Shown here piece by piece: positions 2,995 to 13,534 of a stretch of 19,509 bases of DNA. Source of the DNA: a virus; the IMG/VR virus record IMGVR_UViG_3300045988_079527, positions 1 to 19,509 of that record; one strand, 5' to 3'. Position numbers and translations under genes: made by a program. The notes under the pieces were generated by a model that worked only from the letters and a program-made list of their open reading frames with translations, searched no databases and had not been told where the DNA came from. Numbering within the stretch: position 1 is the first letter of the stretch; each line of letters starts with the position of its first letter.

Positions 2995-3189
2995 ATGAAT
3001 CACATTCACGATTTTATCGAGTTCATGCAAAAAGGCCGCACAATCCCAGAATGGGACTTCACGACCTACATGTTCTTTACATTCTCAATGCTTGTTGGAA
3101 TTTTTATAATACTTCCTGTTCGATTTGAGAACTCTTTTGGAAAGAGACCAGAAGGCACCAAAGATAGGGACGCTAACGAAGGACATTAA
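2995..3189 (+). CDS. Small hypothetical protein, 64 aa; its 3' 105 nt is antisense to the - strand membrane gene
   Basis: SD AAAGGAG precedes the ATG. The C-terminal third may be an artefact of reading the antisense of the membrane gene. Confidence 0.5.
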   Translation: MNHIHDFIEFMQKGRTIPEWDFTTYMFFTFSMLVGIFIILPVRFENSFGKRPEGTKDRDANEGH

Positions 3190-3507
3190 ATTTCCAAATT
3201 GAGTATCAGACAGGACAATCAAGCAGTTTCTCAAAACGAGGAATCCAAAGATAGGCAAAGTGATGACAAAGCTATAAGTTATATCACCGTCTTTCTCAAA
3301 CTTGAAAAAGAGCAGAATGTCATGGATATAGCTTAACGCTAACATCGAAATGAATAAAGCGATACCAATCACTAGGCATAGATACGTCCAATTGATGTCG
3401 GCCAGCCTAGTCAAGGCTGAATGGCTATCTGGTGTTATACAGTGGAATTCAATGTACAGCAACCCAACGAACATCAGAAAAGCAGATATTTCAGATTTAT
3501 TCTTCAT
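3085..3507 (-). CDS. Integral membrane protein, 140 aa, about 4 predicted TM helices, basic C-terminus
   Basis: SD GAGG lies 7 nt before the ATG. There are four hydrophobic stretches: ISAFLMFVGLLYI, WTYLCLVIGIALFISMLALSYI, ITYSFVITLPIFGFLVL and LMSFVSVPIFGAFWSL. It has its own extended -10 promoter. Confidence 0.75.
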   Translation of the reverse strand: MKNKSEISAFLMFVGLLYIEFHCITPDSHSALTRLADINWTYLCLVIGIALFISMLALSYIHDILLFFKFEKDGDITYSFVITLPIFGFLVLRNCLIVLSDTQFGNLMSFVSVPIFGAFWSLSKRVLKSNRKYYKNSNKH

Positions 3508-3797: not shown

Positions 3798-3806
3798 CAT
3801 CAATAT

Positions 3807-3966
3807 CCCAACCGTAGCAGTGAGCTAACGAAGCAAAAAAATAATTATCCTTTTTTAAACAATATCAACAAAAAGCCTACCAAGTGGCTAGCGGTAAGCA
3901 CGTAAACATATCATTAACGATGACTCCTAAATTTAAATGCTTCGTTAGCTTGTTGGTGCGGTTGGG
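3807..3966 (+). ncRNA. Candidate structured RNA: 29-bp long-range helix closing a 102-nt interior
   Basis: 3807-3835 pairs with 3938-3966 as 24 Watson-Crick pairs, 4 G-U pairs and 1 mismatch. The G-U pairs would be C-A mismatches on the - strand. No ORF lies inside. Confidence 0.4.
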
Positions 3967-3990
3967 TAATAGAAGAAAGGAAATAAATAA

Positions 3991-4155
3991 ATGAAAGTAT
4001 CAAAACTATTTAGCTGGATTTGGTCTAAAAAACAACCACAACAAGAGTGCTTCTTCGAGCCAGTATGGACACCACGAGAAATCAACGACCAGAAATATGA
4101 AGCACGTCAGAGACGTGAGCGGTATCTAGCCGCTAAGTATCTTAACAGTAAATAG
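3991..4155 (+). CDS. Small hypothetical protein, 54 aa
   Basis: SD GAAAGGA precedes the ATG (MKVSKLFSWIWSKKQ...). A GC-rich hairpin follows at 4179-4194. Confidence 0.5.
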   Translation: MKVSKLFSWIWSKKQPQQECFFEPVWTPREINDQKYEARQRRERYLAAKYLNSK

Positions 4156-4374
4156 ATCATCAATCTTTCAGCGTGCAGCCACGGCCTGCCGTGGAGTGTA
4201 ACTTATACCTTTCCCCAAAAAATCTTTACTAAATTACTTTTTTCCTAATTTTCCCATTCATAAGTCTAATAAAACATTGAAATACGACACGGTGGGTCAT
4301 GGGTGCACGTTGAAGGCACTAAAAAAGCATGGGTTAGGGCCCATGCAAGAAATAACATCTAAGGAGATTATACC

Positions 4375-6117
4375 ATGATTTCACAAACAATTGCAAAACC
4401 ATCTTACGTTAAAACTAAAGCTTTCGGTCTTTGTGGCACGCTCGCACTTGCTACAGCTCTATTGATTGGAGCTGGTCAAGTATCAGCGGATGAAATAACA
4501 CAGCCAGTAGTTGACGCTCAACCAGCGGTGTCTAATGTGTACACGGCTGACAATGCCGGCAATGTTACTGTGACACCGTCTGAAACAGTGGTACCGACAG
4601 AAACGCCGGTAGCAACTACAGAAGTAGCTACACCAGCACCAGCAACAACTACAGAGGTAGCTCAACCAGTAGCAGAAACACCGGCAGCACCTACAAGCGT
4701 GACTAAAGAGGGTGACACTATCACCGTCGAAAACCCTAACGTGCAAGTGGACTTTCCTAATGGCACTGGTAAATATAACCCGTTTGAAGTGGAATACAAA
4801 GATATCAACTTCCCAGACGATATGGCGATCAATGAAGGTGACAAAGTTGTAACTGAACTACCTAAAGAAATTGGTTTGCAGACTAGCTTTGATTTCGACG
4901 TTTACAACAACGAGAATGTCGTTGGTAAAGCCAACGCTGACGCTCAGACACGAGTGATCACAACGACATTTAACAATTATTTCACTGAGCACCCTTTGAA
5001 TAAAAAGATGTCTTTAAAATTCGATGCGAAATGGCTTGATGTCGTTGAACCGGGTAAACCAGTAACAGTGAATTTCGACGGTACTGTTAAGACATTCACC
5101 ATTGGTGAAGAAGGACCGCTTCCAACAGACGAGCTTCTTTCAAAATGGGGTAGCCAAAATAAAGATAACCCACAAATCATCAATTGGACCTTGCGTCTTA
5201 ACACTGCCCGCCAAGTGCTTAACAATGCATTATTGTCTGATACTTGGTCAGATAATCAAGAGTTCGTTGACGGCTCACAAAATATCTACTTCGTTGAGAA
5301 TCCTGTTAAGTGGACTGGCATTGATTATTCAGCTAAGGATTACCTTGAAAGCTGGAATGTTAGAGCAGACGGCTTTGATGCGAAATTCAAAGAGTTTAAC
5401 CGCATCATGTACATCGATTACCAAACACGCTTGAAATCAGCGGTTAAAGACTCAACTAATCCGACTAACAAGGCTACGCTGGTAGCGGTAGATGCTGGGG
5501 CTATCTCAACATCTAAGGTTCAATTGGTTGGTGGTCGTGGTGACGCAAGCGGTGAAAACAAACCAGAACCAACCTTTGAAATTCCACACGACGCACCTAA
5601 AGTTGACATCCCAGAATTTGAGGGTGGCATCCCTGGAATTCCAGAGGTACGAGAATTGCCAGAGTACACTGAGCCAATCGGAACAGTTCCTAATGAAGCC
5701 CCAGTACATGATAAGCCAGAGTTCCAAGGTGGTATCCCTGGTATTCCAGAAGAACGTGAGCTCCCACCATTTGAAGGTGGCGTAGTGCCAAACGATGCCC
5801 CTGTCCTTGACTTGCCAGAATTGAAAATCCCAGAGGAACCAACTAAACCGACACCAGAGAAACCAGTGACACCGAAAAAAGTACCTAGCAAACCCGTAGA
5901 CGCTCCGAAAGCGAAAGAGGCGGAATCCGCCACAGTATCTTATAAGCTCGATTCTGAGCCAAAAGAAGTGGCAAATACGACGGTTTACGGTGGCACTCTT
6001 CCAAACGCTGGTGAAAAAGAAGGAATTGCTAGCACTCTTGGTCTAGCAGTTATCGCTGTTGGTATCGCAGGTTTGACATTGAGCTTTAAGAAATATAACG
6101 AAGGTGAAGGAGAATAA
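4375..6117 (+). CDS. Secreted cell-surface adhesin-like protein (MSCRAMM-like), 580 aa, with an LPNAG-type C-terminal anchor
   Basis: SD AAGGAG precedes the ATG. The signal peptide ends in LLIGAGQVSA/DE and is followed by a T/P/A/V-rich spacer. The core contains RVITTTFNNYF (compare the MSCRAMM TYTFTDYVD motif) and IINWTLRLN (compare Cna/Sdr-type motifs). Three Pro-rich repeats of about 35 aa follow. The C-terminus has LPNAG, a hydrophobic stretch of about 24 aa, and then KK. Confidence 0.85.
   Translation: MISQTIAKPSYVKTKAFGLCGTLALATALLIGAGQVSADEITQPVVDAQPAVSNVYTADNAGNVTVTPSETVVPTETPVATTEVATPAPATTTEVAQPVAETPAAPTSVTKEGDTITVENPNVQVDFPNGTGKYNPFEVEYKDINFPDDMAINEGDKVVTELPKEIGLQTSFDFDVYNNENVVGKANADAQTRVITTTFNNYFTEHPLNKKMSLKFDAKWLDVVEPGKPVTVNFDGTVKTFTIGEEGPLPTDELLSKWGSQNKDNPQIINWTLRLNTARQVLNNALLSDTWSDNQEFVDGSQNIYFVENPVKWTGIDYSAKDYLESWNVRADGFDAKFKEFNRIMYIDYQTRLKSAVKDSTNPTNKATLVAVDAGAISTSKVQLVGGRGDASGENKPEPTFEIPHDAPKVDIPEFEGGIPGIPEVRELPEYTEPIGTVPNEAPVHDKPEFQGGIPGIPEERELPPFEGGVVPNDAPVLDLPELKIPEEPTKPTPEKPVTPKKVPSKPVDAPKAKEAESATVSYKLDSEPKEVANTTVYGGTLPNAGEKEGIASTLGLAVIAVGIAGLTLSFKKYNEGEGE
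5590..5830 (+). repeat. Three degenerate tandem coding repeats of about 100-105 nt (D/E-A-P-x-x-D-x-P-E-F/L-x-G-G-I-P-G-I-P-E)
   Basis: The units start near 5590, 5695 and 5793. The peptides are APKVDIPEFEGGIPGIPEVRELP, APVHDKPEFQGGIPGIPEERELP and APVLDLPELKIPEEP. Confidence 0.8.
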
Positions 6118-6119
6118 TC

Positions 6120-6440
6120 ATGAAAGAAAACAATAAACAAGTCATATTTTACAGCGCTGAAAAAGATGGGTTCCTTAAAAGTTACAAAGATAGAGGAAAC
6201 CTAGTTTTCGCAGCGACATTTACTGACCGTTTGAGAGACGCACTATACTTGCCAGTTGAACCATATGAGGAACAAAAAACTGAAATCGACAAACTTGCTG
6301 AAGCGTTTGACTGCGAAGTGCTTATCGTAGAAGCCGAGTATAACGTTACTAAACTTGACGGTTCGGGCTTTGAATGCACGGAGCGTGAAGAATCCATGAA
6401 AGATGGTATCAAAGCACCCCTAGAATTTTTGGCGAAGTAA
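6120..6440 (+). CDS. Hypothetical acidic protein, 106 aa, coupled to the adhesin gene
   Basis: Its ATG lies 2 nt after the adhesin stop (GGAGAATAATCATG). I recognise no family. Confidence 0.65.
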   Translation: MKENNKQVIFYSAEKDGFLKSYKDRGNLVFAATFTDRLRDALYLPVEPYEEQKTEIDKLAEAFDCEVLIVEAEYNVTKLDGSGFECTEREESMKDGIKAPLEFLAK

Positions 6441-6515
6441 CAGAACGTGAAGTGGCGGGAGGGTAGGCATTAATTATGGCAGATAATCAGAAATACTATA
6501 GCGCAGGAGGTACAA

Positions 6516-7295
6516 ATGGGGAACCGTAGAATGATAAGTAAAACCGTAACTCAAACGCATCGTTTTCTACGCTTGCCGCTAGAAGCTCAAGCTCTTTATT
6601 TCCATCTTATCCAAAATTGCGACGATGATGGAGTGGTGGAAGCGTTCCCTATTCTCAGAATGATAGGGGCTAACGAGGATAATCTAGGGCTTTTAGTTAT
6701 CAAACAATTCGTAAAACCTCTTAATGATGAAATGGTCTATTTCGTGGTTGATTTTCACGAACAAAACACTGTCAGAAAAGATAGGTATGTTCCTAGCATT
6801 TACAAAGAGTTACTAGAGGAAAACACCGATGAAACCACTGGTAAACCACCGGTAAACCAAACGGAAACCACTGGTTTACCCAATATAAGTAAAGATAATG
6901 AAAGTAAATATAATTTAAGTAAATCTAACAGTAGAGAGGATGAAACATCAGAAATTAGTCAATTTTCTTCTTCTGCTGCTGACGACCAATCAGATTTTAA
7001 TATTTTCAGACATTATCAAGAACGAATCGGGCCTATTGATGGCTACCAAATGGAAAAGCTAAAAGGTTATATCGATTTCGATAAGCTAGAAATCATGTTA
7101 GTCAAACGTGCCATTGATAGAGCCGCCGACAACTCGAAACGCTCATTTGGATATGTCAACTCTATTTTAAAATCTTGGGCACAAAACGGGATTCATACCG
7201 TTGCCCAGCAAGATGAAGAACAACGTCAATTTGACAGTCGTAAAAGTTTTGATGATCAACCGGTTAAATTCGGCCCAGCTTGCAGCAAATACTAG
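6516..7295 (+). CDS. Phage replisome organizer (N-terminal organizer domain plus DnaD-like C-terminal domain)
   Basis: SD AGGAGG precedes the ATG. The N-terminus reads HRFLRLPLEAQALYFHLIQNCDDDGVV. The C-terminus reads FRHYQERIGPI...SFGYVNSILKSWAQNGIHTV, which is DnaD/DnaB_2-like. The central segment is low-complexity and carries iterons. Confidence 0.8.
   Translation: MGNRRMISKTVTQTHRFLRLPLEAQALYFHLIQNCDDDGVVEAFPILRMIGANEDNLGLLVIKQFVKPLNDEMVYFVVDFHEQNTVRKDRYVPSIYKELLEENTDETTGKPPVNQTETTGLPNISKDNESKYNLSKSNSREDETSEISQFSSSAADDQSDFNIFRHYQERIGPIDGYQMEKLKGYIDFDKLEIMLVKRAIDRAADNSKRSFGYVNSILKSWAQNGIHTVAQQDEEQRQFDSRKSFDDQPVKFGPACSKY
6831..6923. repeat. Ori-like iteron cluster inside the replisome organizer gene
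   Basis: GAAACCACTGGT occurs twice (6831-6842, 6864-6875). GGTAAACCA occurs twice (6840-6848, 6851-6859), with the inverted TGGTTTACC at 6872-6880. An A/T-rich triple repeat of AAGTAAA follows, spaced exactly 15 nt apart (6887, 6902, 6917). Confidence 0.6.
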
Positions 7296-7306
7296 AGGTG
7301 ATATCT

Positions 7307-8089
7307 ATGAGTTTAGAGCAAACAGCCAAGCAAATGCGAAGGCAGTACATGAAGCCTAGCGATAAATACTGCGACAAGCACCAACGGCACTATGTCACGA
7401 TTCAGTTTCCTAACTCAAAACCCTACACAGTGTGTGAACTATGCCATCGGGAAGAACAAGATCAACAGAATGCCATCAAAGCACAAGAGCAGTATGAGCG
7501 TGAGCAAGAGCAAAAACGCTTATACTTTCTCAAAGATTTCAGCTTGCTGGATGATGATTTAAAAACTGCTAGCTTTGACAACTACAAGGCGGTAACCAGA
7601 GAGCAGAAAGAAGACTTGAAGAATGTTAGAAGTCAACTTAAAGGCTATCTGGACGGTCAAGACTACAATATTGTGCTTATCGGAGATACTGGAGTGGGCA
7701 AAAGCCATCTAGCTTATTCAGCACTTAAAGCCTTGTCTGATCACACGAAGAAGATGGGGTTATTTATAAACGTGGTTGACCTATTAGCCAAAATCAAAGA
7801 GGATTTCAGTCTCGAAGCTGAATATATCAGACGCATATCGGAAGCTGAATGGCTAGTGCTCGACGATTTAGGCACTGAAAAAGTGACAGAGTGGTCTAAC
7901 GGTATCTTGTACAGCATTTTAAACAAACGTACCAAGACTATCATCACTACTAACCTAAGTCCACGGGACATCATGGGCACTTATGGTAAACGTGTCTATT
8001 CTCGAGTTTTTAAGAAGACAGGACTTGGAACGACGAATGAGCATGTTTATCAATTCAAGACACAACAAGATAAGAGGATGATGCTTTGA
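7307..8089 (+). CDS. DnaC/IstB-like AAA+ helicase loader
   Basis: SD AGAGGTG precedes ATG 7307. Walker A is LIGDTGVGKSHL and Walker B is WLVLDDLGTE. The N-terminus has Cys/His pairs (CDKH...CELCH). Confidence 0.8.
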   Translation: MSLEQTAKQMRRQYMKPSDKYCDKHQRHYVTIQFPNSKPYTVCELCHREEQDQQNAIKAQEQYEREQEQKRLYFLKDFSLLDDDLKTASFDNYKAVTREQKEDLKNVRSQLKGYLDGQDYNIVLIGDTGVGKSHLAYSALKALSDHTKKMGLFINVVDLLAKIKEDFSLEAEYIRRISEAEWLVLDDLGTEKVTEWSNGILYSILNKRTKTIITTNLSPRDIMGTYGKRVYSRVFKKTGLGTTNEHVYQFKTQQDKRMML

Positions 8090-9141: not shown

Positions 9142-10158
9142 ATGAAAGAAGCAGAAAAAATTAACACACTAGACAACATTGAAATCACATTTGAACCCGC
9201 AAAAGTTACGTTTAATGACTTTGAAGCCTTTGAAAAAGGAATCGAACAAGCCATAGCTCAGTATGGCACGTTTGACCTTGAAGTCAATTCAATTGAGGAA
9301 GTCAAAAAAGCTAGGACTGACTTGAACAAGTTGAGCAAGAGCTTGGAAGATAAGCGCAAGGGAATTAAGGGCGCTATTAATAAGCCTTACGCTGAATTTG
9401 AAAAAGCGTACAAAACACCTTACAGCAAACTAAAAGGCTTGATTGATGAACTTAAGAATCAGATTGATAGTTACGAGCAAAACCAAAAAGAACTCCGAAA
9501 AGATGCAGTTAGACAATGGTTTAAAGCGAAAGCTGAGGAAGGTAATCTCAATCCAGATGTCTTTGAGCAATACTTGGATGATTACAGCAAGGGTACTCAA
9601 TTCAAGAAAGATACTTTTACACTCTTAAAGAAAACTGAGGGAGAGCTTGAAAAGATTGTCATTGACGAAATCAACAAGCAAAATCAGAAAGACCAAGACA
9701 TGCTTGTTATCACTGGTCAATGCGCTAGTAATAACCTAGGGCCTGCCACTTACGTCAGAATGTACGAAAACGGGGCTTCACTAGCCGAAGTGTTGAATAG
9801 CATTAACCAAGATGTGGAAAGCGCTAGATTATTCAAAGAACAACAAGAAGCCAAAGCAAAAGCTGAAGCTGAACGACAAGCAGAGCTTGAACGTCAAGCG
9901 AAGGAAAATGCGCAAGCCCAAATCAAGGCGTATAACACCGAAACGGGCGAGATAATCGAAGACGGTATAAATAACCTCAGACAAGAAACAAGCACCGTAC
10001 AAGCAAAACCAGAGGGTAATAACGTCAAATACGCTACGACAATTAAGTTTGTGTTCGACTTAGAGCAAGCTAAAGCATTTAAAGAGTGGTTGAATGCTCA
10101 TGATATCGGGTTTGAAACTGTGGAAGGAATGAAGGAGGTAGAAGATGGAAATAACTAA
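9142..10158 (+). CDS. DUF1351-like phage protein (coiled-coil rich), commonly paired with annealases
   Basis: SD AAGAGGA precedes the ATG. It sits directly after recT. The N-terminal pattern IEITFEPAKVTFNDFEAFEKGIEQAIAQY...ARTDLNKL is recalled from the DUF1351 family and has not been verified. Confidence 0.6.
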   Translation: MKEAEKINTLDNIEITFEPAKVTFNDFEAFEKGIEQAIAQYGTFDLEVNSIEEVKKARTDLNKLSKSLEDKRKGIKGAINKPYAEFEKAYKTPYSKLKGLIDELKNQIDSYEQNQKELRKDAVRQWFKAKAEEGNLNPDVFEQYLDDYSKGTQFKKDTFTLLKKTEGELEKIVIDEINKQNQKDQDMLVITGQCASNNLGPATYVRMYENGASLAEVLNSINQDVESARLFKEQQEAKAKAEAERQAELERQAKENAQAQIKAYNTETGEIIEDGINNLRQETSTVQAKPEGNNVKYATTIKFVFDLEQAKAFKEWLNAHDIGFETVEGMKEVEDGNN

Positions 10159-10543
10159 TAAAGGCTATATCAATTTTAACGACAAATATAACGACAAAGA
10201 GGCGAACTATTGCACAGCCTCCATGAGTTTCTATAACGGGAAGGATGAAGGAGGTAGCTATAAAAGCGGTTATATTGGCGTTATCGCTTTCGGTGAATTA
10301 GGAGATGCTCTTTTTAACAGCGTCGGGAAATTAGTAACAGTTTCCGGGTATTACCGGCTAAAAGAATATGGGGACAAAAAATACCCACAAGTGGTTATTA
10401 CAGCTATCGACAACAACCAAGGAAACTATGGAAATCAAGGTAGCTACAATCAACAACCGCAACAACAAACGCCAAACTTTGGGCGTAATAACCAAATGCA
10501 AGGTAATCCGTTGGACATCAGTAGCGATGATTTACCCTTCTAA
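10145..10543 (+). CDS. ssb: Single-stranded DNA-binding protein (divergent OB region, canonical acidic tail)
   Basis: SD GAAGGAGG precedes the ATG. A G/Q/N-rich linker is followed by the C-terminal DISSDDLPF, the hallmark SSB tip. Confidence 0.7.
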   Translation: MEITNKGYINFNDKYNDKEANYCTASMSFYNGKDEGGSYKSGYIGVIAFGELGDALFNSVGKLVTVSGYYRLKEYGDKKYPQVVITAIDNNQGNYGNQGSYNQQPQQQTPNFGRNNQMQGNPLDISSDDLPF

Positions 10544-10552
10544 GGTGTTCTT

Positions 10553-10957
10553 ATGGAAAGATTGATTTTAAAATTCGAGCTTGATAGAAAGCAAATGATC
10601 TCAGCGAATGACAGACTACACTTTCAGAAAAAGGCTAAAATCACAAAATTTCTAAGACAGCTAGCGTATTACGAAGGTCGAAACACCTTACTTGATTATT
10701 TTGGCTTGCCTTTTAACGAGAAAAAGCCTTGTAAGGTGATAGTTTGGATATTCGCCCCGACAAATCGAAAATATGACCCGCCAAACTGGTCACCAACTAG
10801 CAAGGCGCTTTTGGATGGTTTGACGGATGCAAACTTTTGGACGGATGATAATTACCACGTTATCAAATCAACAGATTTCAGACACGGTGGCAAGTCGGGA
10901 AACAAGAAATACAGAATTGAGCTTGAAATTGAGGAACTAGATGAAGGCGAAAGTTAA
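10553..10957 (+). CDS. RusA-like Holliday junction resolvase
   Basis: It contains SANDRLHFQKKAKITK and YDPPNWSPTSKALLDGLTDANFWTDDN, which resemble RusA catalytic-region patterns. Its position after ssb also fits. Confidence 0.6.
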   Translation: MERLILKFELDRKQMISANDRLHFQKKAKITKFLRQLAYYEGRNTLLDYFGLPFNEKKPCKVIVWIFAPTNRKYDPPNWSPTSKALLDGLTDANFWTDDNYHVIKSTDFRHGGKSGNKKYRIELEIEELDEGES

Positions 10958-11177
10958 AGACAAACTGGTCGGTGTATACGCTCCAGGTAACTATGATCAT
11001 ACAAGCGTGTTAGATCAGACACAAGCATTTTCAAGGTGGTTTTGGTCTAATCGCAAGGATATGGAACTTATTAGCATTAAGCTAGGTATCGACATTAAGA
11101 AGCTCAATCGTATTCTGACACTGGAGCAGTTACCGGATGAAGAATCACTAACGAGGATGATGAAACTATGCAAGTAA
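10941..11177 (+). CDS. Hypothetical protein, 78 aa
   Basis: SD GAGGAA precedes the ATG. It overlaps both neighbouring genes. Confidence 0.6.
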   Translation: MKAKVKDKLVGVYAPGNYDHTSVLDQTQAFSRWFWSNRKDMELISIKLGIDIKKLNRILTLEQLPDEESLTRMMKLCK

Positions 11178-11338
11178 AAGAGCATGCCTTATACAAAGGT
11201 GAAGAGCTACTGGCGATAGGCACTAAACGTGAAATTGCTGAACAATTAGGCGTGTCAGCTAGCACCGTTGGTTACTATGGCACGCCGGTATATGCTCGAA
11301 GGACTAGCGAGAATGGAAGGAGATTAATAAAGCTATGA
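11168..11338 (+). CDS. Small HTH-like protein, 56 aa
   Basis: ATG 11168 overlaps the end of the upstream gene. The sequence TKREIAEQLGVSASTVGYY looks like an HTH. An ATGA overlap links it to the next gene. It is below the track length cutoff. Confidence 0.55.
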   Translation: MQVKEHALYKGEELLAIGTKREIAEQLGVSASTVGYYGTPVYARRTSENGRRLIKL

Positions 11339-11550
11339 CAAGTATTAGACTGCAAAATCCATACATGGATCAAACTATCAAGGTGGAAGAAGATTATAAA
11401 TATATTCTGAACATGCTGAAATGGATTGAGCAAGGCGATGTGAATTATCTTTATTTACAGCAGATTGAGCCAGAAGAAAGAATAATAACTATCAGCCCTA
11501 AGAATTTCGCAAAGATTGATTATTACGAAGTAGAGGAGACAGAATCATGA
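11335..11550 (+). CDS. Hypothetical protein, 71 aa
   Basis: SD GGAAGGAG lies upstream. It has ATGA coupling at both ends. Confidence 0.6.
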   Translation: MTSIRLQNPYMDQTIKVEEDYKYILNMLKWIEQGDVNYLYLQQIEPEERIITISPKNFAKIDYYEVEETES

Positions 11551-11702
11551 AATATAAAGTTATCGTATACTACGACAACATAGAAGACAGTGAGCATGTT
11601 TTCAGCAATAAAAACGATGCGATTAATGAATTACACAGATTGAAATTGAAATATCGCAATGCAAGGAAGTATAAGGTGGGAATGGTGGAAATTGATGATT
11701 AG
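11547..11702 (+). CDS. Small hypothetical protein, 51 aa
   Basis: SD GGAGGAGA lies upstream. It has an ATGA overlap with the previous stop. It is below the track length cutoff. Confidence 0.5.
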   Translation: MKYKVIVYYDNIEDSEHVFSNKNDAINELHRLKLKYRNARKYKVGMVEIDD

Positions 11703-11905
11703 AACGAAGTATTTACGTGAGAGAACTGACACTTTTAACCACCTAGAAATTGATGAATTAATCAATAATTTTCTTGCAGAAAACCCAAATATAGAAAATT
11801 ATTGATATTAAATATCAATCTAATGTGGCGTTAGCAATCTATGAATATGACTTTCGTAGAGCATATGATACATCAGCATTAATCATCTATAAGGAGTTGA
11901 ATTAG
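11695..11905 (+). pseudogene. Cse60/DUF2758-like small protein, frame broken at the A4 run 11795-11798
   Basis: ORF 11695-11805 encodes MIRTKYLRERTDTFNHLEIDELINNFLAENPNIENY*. The +1 frame continues as IDIKYQSNVALAIYEYDFRRAYDTSALIIYKELN to the stop at 11903-11905. Removing one A restores a single 69-aa protein with the family pattern ...FL...DIKYQ...SALIIY. Confidence 0.6.
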
Positions 11906-12427
11906 ATGGATAGAAATGAAGCAATAAGCCGAGAAGAAGCGGTACGGACAATATCAAGGATATCTGGTGGTTCTGTATCATACGCAGAGGACCTATATGA
12001 TTCTTTCTTCCCTAAACCAATCGTTCCGCAATGTGTGGCGGATTGGTATGAGGAACATAAGAATGACTTAAATGAGGATATTTGGGCATACCTTACAAGC
12101 TGGGCTGATACGAAATGGGACGAGTTCAAATACTGGATGTACCATACTGGCAGGAACAAAGCCATCACTACCCTCGCAAACATGCACCAGTTCGGCTACG
12201 AGGTCGATAAAGGGCCTAGATATACGGTTAGAGTGAAAGGAATAAAAGGGGATAAGCAGTGGTTGGTTTTCAGCGAATTGACGGAGTGCTGGTGGTTTGG
12301 TACCAAGGAAGATTCTCACTATGTCGTTCTTGAACACACCCACAAAGAACTTGAAGCGAACGGCTTCGGGTGGGTGTTTGACTGCGAAGGCGTTGAAGTG
12401 AAAGAGGTGGACGATGAAAACGATTAA
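11906..12427 (+). CDS. DUF1642-like phage protein, 173 aa
   Basis: SD AAGGAG precedes the ATG. The patterns VPQCVADWYEEHK, GYEVDKGPRYTVRVKG and HTHKELEANGFGWVF match my recollection of streptococcal-phage DUF1642 proteins. Confidence 0.65.
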   Translation: MDRNEAISREEAVRTISRISGGSVSYAEDLYDSFFPKPIVPQCVADWYEEHKNDLNEDIWAYLTSWADTKWDEFKYWMYHTGRNKAITTLANMHQFGYEVDKGPRYTVRVKGIKGDKQWLVFSELTECWWFGTKEDSHYVVLEHTHKELEANGFGWVFDCEGVEVKEVDDEND

Positions 12428-12491
12428 ATTCATTTTGGCAGTCTTAGCTGCGGTTTACGCTTTGCGCACGCTGTCTAAGAAAGGGGAATGA
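12414..12491 (+). CDS. Hydrophobic micro-protein, 25 aa (MKTIKFILAVLAAVYALRTLSKKGE)
   Basis: SD AAAGAGGTGG lies 3-4 nt before ATG 12414. It has a single TM-like helix and a basic C-terminus. It fills the gap between two genes. Confidence 0.45.
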   Translation: MKTIKFILAVLAAVYALRTLSKKGE

Positions 12492-12494
12492 TCA

Positions 12495-12827
12495 ATGGGA
12501 CTTTCGTCAAAGAAGAAGACCTCTAGGAAGTGGTACACGGATAGTTTGACTATTTCAAGCGCTATCTTAGTCGTCAGTCTGGTCGTTAACATGCTGTCAG
12601 TCTACTACGTCCTGACAGTGCCACGTAGGGCAGAAACAGTGACTATCCATAAAGTGGATAACGTGGGCGCAGAGATGCACGGCAAGGTTACTGGAAAAGA
12701 GAAAATTAATGATCTCTACACTATCGATTGTGGGGCTTACGGCAAGTTTCTTGTCAGCAAGGAGCAATACAACAGTGTGAACGTCGGGGATGATATCCCT
12801 AGCTATTTAAGAGGGCGTGGCTCATGA
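12495..12827 (+). CDS. Single-pass membrane-anchored protein, 110 aa
   Basis: SD AAAGGGGA precedes the ATG. A basic N-terminus is followed by the TM helix LTISSAILVVSLVVNMLSVYYVL. An ATGA-type overlap links it to the next gene. Confidence 0.7.
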   Translation: MGLSSKKKTSRKWYTDSLTISSAILVVSLVVNMLSVYYVLTVPRRAETVTIHKVDNVGAEMHGKVTGKEKINDLYTIDCGAYGKFLVSKEQYNSVNVGDDIPSYLRGRGS

Positions 12828-13534
12828 GTAAAACCTACAAATATTCCGGACTGACCAAGGAGCTGTATCAGCGCTTAGTTATTGAACATGCAGCACTGAG
12901 AAAAGCACACAAAAAAGGCTCTTATAAGCAGTTCTTCCAAGACGTTAAACAGTGCAGTGAGTTACAAGCTCGCATCATTTACCAAGCGTTTAATAGCGCA
13001 GTCGTTGAACGTGCGAGGATATCGCCAGCGACTGTCGATAGGTTAGAAGGTATCATTTCAGACGAGCTTTATAGCGACCTAAAAGCATATCTGTCTGAAA
13101 ACTACACAAGAGGGAGAGTTACTCGACCAACCGTAGATACAAGTAATGCGGGATTGCCAGAAGAACTTTTCAAGCAGTTTCGTGTGGAAGTAGAAGAACT
13201 TCGGGCGAATTATAAGAATAGCCTAGCTAAATACATCATGGACGTTAAAGGCTGCGATAGAAAAGAAGCTAACAGAATCAAGGACTCAATCAATCGCTGC
13301 TATGTCGAATGTATCGTCCTAACACCACTCAAGGTCATCCAAATGGAAGGGCTACTTTCAAGAGAGCTTTTCAGCGAAATTATTGATTATGTATTTAATA
13401 ACTATGAATGGAGCGAGAGATTAGACAATGAAATTGACCGCATCATTCTTAAATATAGAACTAAGGGCAAGATAGGTCGTAAGAAACCCAGTGTTAAACG
13501 TGCTCTATATACGGCATTGGCAATGGGTTTGTAG
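12824..13534 (+). CDS. Hypothetical protein, 236 aa, built from two tandem ~90-aa homologous halves
   Basis: GLTKELYQRL...DVKQCSELQA...LEGIISDELYSDLKAYLSENY aligns with GLPEELFKQF...DVKGCDRKEA...MEGLLSRELFSEIIDYVFNNY. The C-terminus is basic. Confidence 0.7.
   Translation: MSKTYKYSGLTKELYQRLVIEHAALRKAHKKGSYKQFFQDVKQCSELQARIIYQAFNSAVVERARISPATVDRLEGIISDELYSDLKAYLSENYTRGRVTRPTVDTSNAGLPEELFKQFRVEVEELRANYKNSLAKYIMDVKGCDRKEANRIKDSINRCYVECIVLTPLKVIQMEGLLSRELFSEIIDYVFNNYEWSERLDNEIDRIILKYRTKGKIGRKKPSVKRALYTALAMGL

Follow-up and report, generated by a model that had tools for sequence, protein, structure and literature searches.

The window analysed here comprises the whole stretch of 19,509 nucleotides (nt) of the viral record IMGVR_UViG_3300045988_079527. 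Our subject is an ATG-started open reading frame (ORF) on its plus strand (4375-6117), which encodes a protein of 580 amino acids (aa). In our view this gene, called the adhesin below, is cargo of a temperate siphophage of Streptococcus salivarius, and its product is probably a surface adhesin of the MSCRAMM/Cna type that leaves the cell by Sec export. An initial annotation made from the DNA alone had named it a wall-anchored MSCRAMM-like adhesin, and as a prediction this is supported by Pfam, by the SIALI-17 repeat family and by Foldseek (E about 1e-15). It had also described the gene as the largest of the early half, and within the first 10 kb the next largest ORF indeed encodes only 338 aa. 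The upstream ORF (54 aa) stops at 4155, the 219 nt from there to the adhesin are non-coding (about 220 nt had been estimated), and an AAGGAG Shine-Dalgarno sequence is located 9 nt 5′ of the ATG. The locus contains the following features:

4165-4316, plus strand: conserved long-range stem of the phage backbone, with arms at about 4165-4199 and about 4282-4316 around a variable loop
4327-4346, plus strand: hairpin GCATGGG-TTAGGG-CCCATGC with a 7-bp stem, preceded by an A-run (from sequence and fold)
4360-4377, plus strand: translation start region with AAGGAG, ATTATACC and ATG
4375-4488, plus strand: putative signal peptide, residues 1-38, with K8, K13 and K15, the hydrophobic core AFGLCGTLALATALLIGAG and a predicted cleavage between VSA and DE (from reading the sequence)
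4489-4692, plus strand: T/V/A/P-rich low-complexity stalk, residues 39-106 (from composition)
4693-5109, plus strand: Ig-like domain 1, residues 107-245, Big_8 or MSCRAMM N2-like, holding RVITTTFNNYF
5110-5532, plus strand: Ig-like domain 2, residues 246-386, Collagen_bind or Cna N2-like, holding IINWTLRLN
5533-5562, plus strand: terminal strand GGRGDASGEN, residues 387-396, candidate latch and end of the A region
5563-5994, plus strand: Pro-rich wall-spanning region with three SIALI-17 repeats (residues about 397-490) and a P/K-rich spacer (491-540)
5998-6114, plus strand: sorting signal with LPNAG (5998-6012, residues 542-546), hydrophobic residues 551-571 and the tail KKYNEGEGE (572-580)
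6120-6440, plus strand: 106-aa ORF (phrog_2486), a frequent 3′ partner that starts 2 nt past the adhesin stop

Reading of the translation recovered the putative signal peptide, the T/P/A-rich stalk and the Pro-rich repeats that had been proposed initially. The stalk is simple in composition (14 T, 12 V, 12 A and 10 P among the 67 residues 40-106), and 29 of the 146 residues between 395 and 540 are Pro. The repeats were identified through NCBIfam, in which SIALI-17 (NF043031, an equivalog) matched three stretches (E 2.1e-15; 56 bits against a curated cut-off of 30), and by this cut-off the adhesin is classed as a SIALI-17 repeat-containing surface protein. The NCBIfam family strep_RK_lipo matched the adhesin only weakly (E 0.053), and no family of the PHROGs matched it. 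Two Pfam domains were found above their gathering cut-offs, namely Big_8 (PF17961) at residues 143-219 with an E-value of 4.6e-10, and Collagen_bind (PF05737) at residues 253-370 with an E-value of 3.7e-12 and 47 bits against a cut-off of 27.5. IINWTLRLN, which had been compared to a motif of Ig-fold A domains, falls inside the Collagen_bind domain. The Pfam families that had been suggested as a check were therefore recovered in part: Collagen_bind, and Big_8 in addition, exceeded the cut-off, whereas Gram_pos_anchor stayed under it and domain 2 is of the Collagen_bind and not of the SdrG_C_C type.

The fold of the A region was predicted with AlphaFold2 for residues 100-405, on the basis of a 75-sequence alignment from two homolog searches. 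The model consists of two all-beta domains (predicted local distance difference test, pLDDT, 88.2; predicted template modelling score, pTM, 0.76), with a pLDDT of about 90 in domain 1. When the model was compared with the PDB by Foldseek, the top 50 matches were mainly MSCRAMM A regions (ClfA, SdrG, SdrE, SdrC, SdrD, ClfB, Bbp, FnBPA and UafA) and collagen adhesins of the Cna type (Cna, Cnm, RspB and ACE). The alignments spanned both domains over about 300 columns, with E-values from 1e-13 to 3e-16, and the matched structures included ClfA 2vr3, SdrG 1r17, Bbp 5cfa, Cnm 8jl8, SdrE 5wtb, Cna 2f68 and 2f6a, and RspB 3v10. The prediction of a DEv-IgG fold was thus upheld, as the best PDB matches were all MSCRAMM A regions. 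In a viral structure library only one good match was obtained, annotated 'Clumping factor [Siphoviridae sp.]'. At the level of sequence, a family profile searched against the PDB reached SdrE (E 1.4e-6) and aligned tttFNdYF(kehP) with the SdrE segment TYTFTDYVDKYE, signature TYTFTDYVD, which supports the early comparison of RVITTTFNNYF with this motif. Residues T197, F199, N200, Y202 and F203 are invariant in homologs from eight phage genomes. We assessed the protein by the definition of MSCRAMMs given by Foster, Geoghegan, Ganesh and Hook (2014). According to the model, the A region contains two adjacent IgG-like (DEv-IgG) domains, and by the profile alignment the first of them carries a TYTFTDYVD-like motif. 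The Collagen_bind score above the gathering threshold would in addition place the protein with adhesins of the Cna type.

The adhesin shares features with two groups of known adhesins. Like the adhesin, Cna, ACE, Cnm and RspB have an Ig-like domain in front of a Pfam Collagen_bind domain, and the best TM-scores of the model were obtained with Cna (2f68/2f6a, 0.66-0.69), followed by Cnm 8jl8 and RspB 3v10 (about 0.6). The identity to this group is only 14-16%, however, SIALI-17 Pro-rich repeats replace the CnaB/B-repeat stalk, and the adhesin is phage-borne. The Clf/Sdr group (ClfA, SdrG, SdrE and Bbp), which binds by 'dock, lock and latch', gave the lowest Foldseek E-values (ClfA 3e-16, SdrG 1e-15), and SdrE was the sole PDB family reached through the sequence profile. 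As in this group, a conserved strand is found past the second domain of the adhesin; unlike its members, the adhesin has no SD-repeat region and its second domain is not SdrG_C_C. A terminal beta-strand is predicted with confidence at residues 387-394, where blocks 281-300 of the model have a pLDDT of about 86-87. D289 and N365 are invariant both in the eight-sequence and in the wider alignment, and K257 is invariant in the first and conserved to at least 90% in the second. These residues would correspond to the isopeptide triad K176/D209/N308 of the Cna N2 domain, and K257, D289 and N365 are a candidate isopeptide triad of domain 2. For domain 1 no isopeptide bond is claimed: K111, D175 and N233 are invariant in the eight sequences but not in the wider alignment.

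Relatives of the adhesin were found on at least 287 IMG/VR viral contigs, of which 80 loci were examined and 73 distinct versions compared. The ratio of non-synonymous to synonymous substitution rates (dN/dS) lies between 0.07 and 0.20 in every region, with 0.19 for the repeats and tail; as it is low throughout, the gene is maintained under purifying selection. Among the 73 versions, domain 2 is the most variable folded part (mean identity 65%, minimum 39%), the signal-peptide region has a mean identity of 80%, and GGRGDASGEN is the most conserved stretch with 96%. The number of SIALI-17 repeats varies from 1 to 5 among relatives. The RGD triplet is present in 51 of the versions and replaced by KGD in 21, and it is absent from the homolog of phage CJLB-5; as it is not conserved, we make no claim for an integrin motif.

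Relatives were also looked for in species-representative genomes. Full-length ones were found in prophages of S. salivarius, S. parasanguinis, S. gingivalis, S. sanguinis, S. oralis and S. panodentis, and in a Gemella metagenome-assembled genome (MAG). Non-phage DNA gave matches to the A region only (25-47% identity), the best of them (37-47%) in S. salivarius and its relatives and weaker ones in S. suis, S. oralis, Abiotrophia and Gemella MAGs. The nearest non-phage relative is a chromosomal adhesin of S. salivarius (1008-1014 aa) with a YSIRK signal, Big_8, Collagen_bind, four FctA domains and an LPETG anchor (9821-12865 in strain KSS6, locus L113; 9503-12529 in locus L111). It has the same A region as the phage protein, with 37% identity over residues 32-416, and both contain TTTFNNYF, SKWGSQ, NW.(M/L)RLN and LVGGRGDA. 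The homology stops right after GGRGDAxGxN, and the phage protein thus joins an A region of the host type to a short Pro-rich stalk. The YSIRK signal, a long Ser/Thr-rich N-terminal region and a stalk of four FctA domains instead of SIALI-17 repeats are found in the chromosomal paralog only. This paralog lies outside any prophage, with no phage-like ORF in 10 kb on either side. In strain 85-06 S24 the phage-type and the chromosomal adhesin are present on one contig (L095 and L111).

The source of the window is a temperate siphophage of S. salivarius that is Aliceevansviridae-like and integrates adjacent to pyk. Its nearest named relatives are S. salivarius phages and the Moineauvirus and Brussowvirus phages of S. 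thermophilus. On contigs with the identical protein the prophage adjoins pyk and the integrase gene is found about 8.7 kb to the left of the adhesin; at the loci L140-L143 the integration is directly downstream of pyruvate kinase in the pfk-pyk locus. To the left of the adhesin lie genes for helix-turn-helix regulators, an AntA/ANT antirepressor and an excisionase-like protein, and to its right those for a DnaD-like replisome organizer (PF07261), an IstB/DnaC-like loader, RecT, SSB, RusA, a late activator, TerL and the portal protein. The location noted at the outset, with small early ORFs on one side and the replisome organizer on the other, recurs in 80 of 80 IMG/VR loci, where the adhesin is always part of the rightward early block and has the same orientation as the early genes. 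In these loci it is preceded by Ant, Xis-like and orf54 genes and followed either by the 106-aa ORF (40 of the 80) or by DnaD-, helicase- or RecT-type modules.

Comparison with sister phages indicates that the adhesin gene occupies a cargo slot. S. vestibularis phage SVep1 has the same leader and start region, followed at 4387-4962 by a gene for a 191-aa YdcK-type beta-solenoid protein (phrog_7964), and the slot therefore appears to exchange cargo; the 106-aa ORF follows this different cargo gene as well. In S. thermophilus phages CHPC663 and TP-J34 the leader is kept and runs through ATTATACC into ATG ACA ATT TAA before the replication initiator. Since the same slot contains another gene in SVep1 and none in the S. 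thermophilus phages, the suggestion that the gene is a cassette insertion proved right. The adhesin is also not conserved at this site in all relatives, as SVep1, CHPC663, TP-J34 and DT1 have no copy of it. An identical protein is encoded on 114 contigs, combined with differing lysogeny modules (S24 repressor versus CI plus the abortive infection gene Abi_2) and differing recombination modules (RecT versus ERF).

Full-length homologs with the same domain order were found in YMC-2011 (Ssal_phage00024, YP_006561239.1; 86% identity) and in Javan536, Javan534/535/539 and SA-TP2 (61-73%). All lie downstream of the same leader and upstream of the replication genes. The 106-aa ORF intervenes in YMC-2011, Javan536 and SA-TP2 but not in Javan535, and the replication module that follows is of the Gam/Sak4/helicase type in YMC-2011, in contrast to DnaD/DnaC/RecT in the window. 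Their sorting motifs are LPSTG, LPNTG or LPVTG, as opposed to LPNAG in the window. Distant homologs also lie inside the early/replication regions of unrelated prophages: between two helicase genes in Javan311 (S. mitis), after the replication initiator in Javan371 (S. parasanguinis), and between the excisionase and a replication gene in 'CJLB-5'. The last of these records (MW057932.1, 'Campylobacter phage CJLB-5', from poultry faeces and labelled C. jejuni) contains a 34%-identical homolog with an LPKTG motif at 5923-7353. Its lysogeny module is of a Gram-positive type and its nearest proteins are named Streptococcus sp., S. panodentis and S. sanguinis; judged by these genes, the host assignment looks wrong. 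In Javan535 (4744-6465), as in Javan534 and Javan539, the homolog is annotated 'sialidase'. No sialidase domain was detected in the family, which shows only Big_8, Collagen_bind and SIALI-17; the label is probably wrong and may have been suggested by the name of the repeat. An odd fusion was seen in a short S. sanguinis protein (P0220, 279 aa), in which YopX, a phage domain of cytoplasmic type, stands at the N-terminus and is followed by a C-terminus of the SIALI-17 type with an LPXTG wall anchor. In the window itself, the DnaD-like gene starts at 6516 within a 17-codon ORF at 6476-6529 (MADNQKYYSAGGTNGEP). The first codons of this short ORF agree with the N-terminus (MSDNQKYY) of the replication initiator of CHPC663 and TP-J34, and it looks like a scar left by recombination when one replication module was exchanged for another.

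The non-coding DNA in front of the adhesin is highly structured. The RNA fold of 4156-4390 has a free energy of -68.2 kcal/mol (z = -5.9), and RNAalifold on 66 leaders gave compensatory double changes at 13 of 32 consensus pairs. Three consecutive pairs of the long-range stem show such double changes in 27-28 of these sequences, and two pairs of the hairpin are compensated in 25-29; these counts are inflated by relatedness, but the arms of the stem are separated by about 100 nt around the variable loop. The 7-bp hairpin was located at 4327-4346 exactly as first described. It precedes the adhesin in 74 of 81 loci, as GCATGGG/CCCATGC in 42 and GCACAGG/CCTGTGC in 27, which is a compensatory exchange. 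The start region AAGGAGATTATACCATG is nearly invariant in the 80 loci. The leader was also found in SVep1, CHPC663, TP-J34 and DT1, all without the adhesin, and because it is kept in these sister phages, leader and hairpin are conserved phage backbone and not specific to the adhesin. In salivarius-group phages with and without the adhesin, this covarying element of long-range stem and A-run hairpin (4165-4346 in the window) separates the small early ORFs from whichever gene comes next; among the contigs studied, it was located at 4165-4389 in L002 (SVep1), 3470-3700 in L005, 4325-4555 in L006 and 2655-2912 in L011.

With regard to function, the leader is possibly a site of RNA processing or stability, or a transcript boundary. 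A search of 3800-4450 against Rfam gave nothing significant (best E 2.5). The TP-J34 record already marks stem-loops at this position, and no functional description of the leader stem-loops was found. The hairpin was rejected as a plus-strand terminator: the A6 in front of it forms a T-run for the minus strand, and it resembles a terminator on that strand only. A replication origin of the 'PER' type of Sfi21/DT1 was also considered and dropped as unsupported. The leader precedes two different types of replication module, and in DT1 it is found between orf30 and orf31. The origin of DT1 was reportedly placed between orf36 and orf37, after the primase gene, by Lamothe et al. in 2005.

We also searched for signals from which the adhesin could be expressed. 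A simple consensus scan, which can miss weak or atypical promoters, detected no sigma-70-like site on the plus strand of 4156-4374, and the same signal scan found no terminator 3′ of the adhesin. No conserved -35/-10 pair was present in alignments of 72 and 66 leaders. The best promoter candidate in the window, TTCCTA-17-TCTAAT, was discarded, as it is not conserved. The adhesin therefore behaves as a moron in one respect, its presence or absence between otherwise collinear phages (adhesin here, another gene in SVep1, an empty slot in CHPC663 and TP-J34), while the promoter and terminator of its own that a moron would carry for expression from the repressed prophage were not found by the consensus scan, nor was a promoter in the leader alignments. 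Because of this, and because the next ORF starts 2 nt on, the adhesin is probably read from the rightward early/replication transcript. Separately, we observed ORFs on the minus strand of the window. One (3085-3507, 140 aa, several hydrophobic segments, no PHROG match) lies on the opposite strand within the rightward early block, and the others are at 1415-1762 (phrog_3773) and 371-694. By their position, these three are better candidates than the adhesin for expression from the prophage.

Taken as a host-surface adhesin, the protein could act as follows. After export, the housekeeping sortase A would cut within LPNAG and link the adhesin to peptidoglycan, with the Pro-rich region crossing the cell wall. 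The A region would trap a peptide-like or collagen-like ligand between its two domains, and the GGRGDASGEN strand may latch the ligand, as in 'dock, lock and latch' or in the 'collagen hug'. A lysogen would gain an extra or alternative binding specificity beside that of its chromosomal paralog, and variation of domain 2 may tune this specificity. Several observations weigh against such a role. Single-sequence phmmer searches of the PDB gave no match with either the whole protein or domain 2 alone, so the relationship to known adhesins is remote, and the Foldseek alignments to characterised adhesins likewise show a remote similarity of 9-16% identity. The pentapeptide is LPNAG and not LPXTG, and Gram_pos_anchor scored 14.3 bits, under its cut-off of 20. 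A literature search returned no study of the adhesin protein and no ligand data for any member of the family. Finally, the lack of a promoter and terminator of its own is atypical for a classical moron, and expression in lysogens is in doubt.

The strongest alternative, which we regard as unlikely but well ahead of those that follow, is that the same wall-anchored protein serves the phage and is timed to its lytic growth. Its synthesis would be restricted to the times at which the early and replication genes are expressed, following induction or infection, or would be continuous in an episomal phage. It would either mask receptors, leading to superinfection exclusion, or glue the infected cell to surfaces or neighbouring cells, so that progeny is freed near new hosts. 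The co-orientation in the early block of all 80 loci and the similar placement in unrelated prophages (S. mitis, S. parasanguinis and CJLB-5 type) are in line with this, as are the missing promoter and terminator and the 2-nt gap to the next ORF. The adhesin moreover uses the leader and start region that head the replication module in adhesin-less phages. In addition, the YMC-2011 record is circular. This phage was reportedly extrachromosomal at 3-4 copies (Chou et al., in 2017, are said to have found this), which would keep both the replication genes and the adhesin on. On the other hand, MSCRAMM A regions bind extended peptides or collagen, and not the wall-polysaccharide receptors used by phages of the S. 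thermophilus group. A sortase-anchored layer produced just before lysis seems costly, and the existence of a chromosomal paralog that shares the A region speaks for a role in host colonisation. The known exclusion proteins of this phage group (Ltp) are, furthermore, small lipoproteins encoded in the lysogeny module (PMC3952083).

Much less probable, in our opinion, is that the LPNAG allele is weakened or re-targeted, such that sortase cleaves it poorly and the protein is shed or stays tethered to the membrane through its C-terminal helix. The sorting-signal-like end described initially stands with regard to its hydrophobic stretch followed by KK and to the LPXTG motifs of its homologs; its own motif is the variant LPNAG, and the anchor score under the Pfam cut-off would fit a weakened signal. 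The homologs in eight phage genomes have LPSTG, LPNTG, LPVTG, LPATG or LPKTG, and LPXTG is kept in 65 of the 73 diverse phage versions, with LPNAG in the remaining 8. Among the 120 closest distinct proteins, however, LPNAG is the majority motif (78), and it occurs on more than 100 contigs, which makes it a stable and successful allele. The dN/dS of 0.19 in repeats and tail also indicates purifying selection. LPXAG is an accepted occasional sortase motif, with substrates in S. aureus and predicted ones in S. uberis (PMC3436756, PMC2657157). Given this acceptance, the frequency of the allele and the selection on its tail, wall anchoring of the LPNAG protein is likely. That the protein is a structural or replication component of the phage which merely resembles an adhesin, for instance a receptor-binding protein of the virion, is very improbable: the gene has the same position in many relatives and Ig-like domains are common on virions, but signal peptide, wall-spanning repeats and sorting signal are typical of proteins on the host surface. 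The gene is moreover not part of the structural module and matches no PHROG, and it is dispensable, as CHPC663, TP-J34 and DT1 do without it and SVep1 has another gene.

Proteins of this kind have been recorded before. The exact protein is present in GenBank (UVY58204.1, UWG02816.1 and DAY31878.1) as 'cell-wall agglutinin N-terminal ligand-sugar binding [Bacteriophage sp.]', a 95%-identical S. salivarius protein (P0075) was named 'SIALI-17 repeat-containing surface protein' by NCBI, and the YMC-2011 copy is annotated 'lpxtg cell wall surface protein, collagen binding domain protein'. In the literature searched, no paper mentions SIALI-17, and the Javan prophage paper is silent on adhesins. Phage-borne adherence factors include SasX of a phiSPbeta-like prophage of S. 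aureus and PblA/PblB of S. mitis phage SM1; SasX has a fold unrelated to that of the adhesin, and PblA and PblB are tail proteins freed on lysis and not sortase substrates. LPXTG proteins have also been noted on phiD12-like prophages of group B Streptococcus (PMC6546898). In all these cases, as with the adhesin, a factor with a predicted or shown effect on host adherence is encoded by a temperate phage of a Gram-positive coccus. The protein class, its carriage by phages and its annotation are already on record, and all that is unusual is the recurrent placement in the early block, downstream of a structured leader common to these phages. To our knowledge, neither SasX, PblA/PblB nor the group B Streptococcus protein is located at the head of a replication module behind such a leader.

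Among the early colonisers of the human mouth and upper gut, S. salivarius is one of the most abundant. Few cases of lysogenic conversion are documented in commensals, and this gene for an MSCRAMM-type adhesin, which is present on hundreds of viral contigs with its diversity concentrated in the second ligand-binding domain, is a candidate for one. As a mobile adhesin it could transfer binding specificities from strain to strain and influence colonisation, coaggregation and occasional endocarditis. It is doubtful, though conceivable, that surface display is wired to the early/replication transcript as an adhesion switch timed by the phage and not constitutive in lysogens. If this were true, the cell surface would change on induction, infection or episomal carriage, gluing producers to surfaces or neighbours or shielding them from superinfection, and prophages of several oral streptococcal species would follow the same principle. 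Such a coupling of expression to phage replication would represent a new timing logic for phage-borne surface factors.

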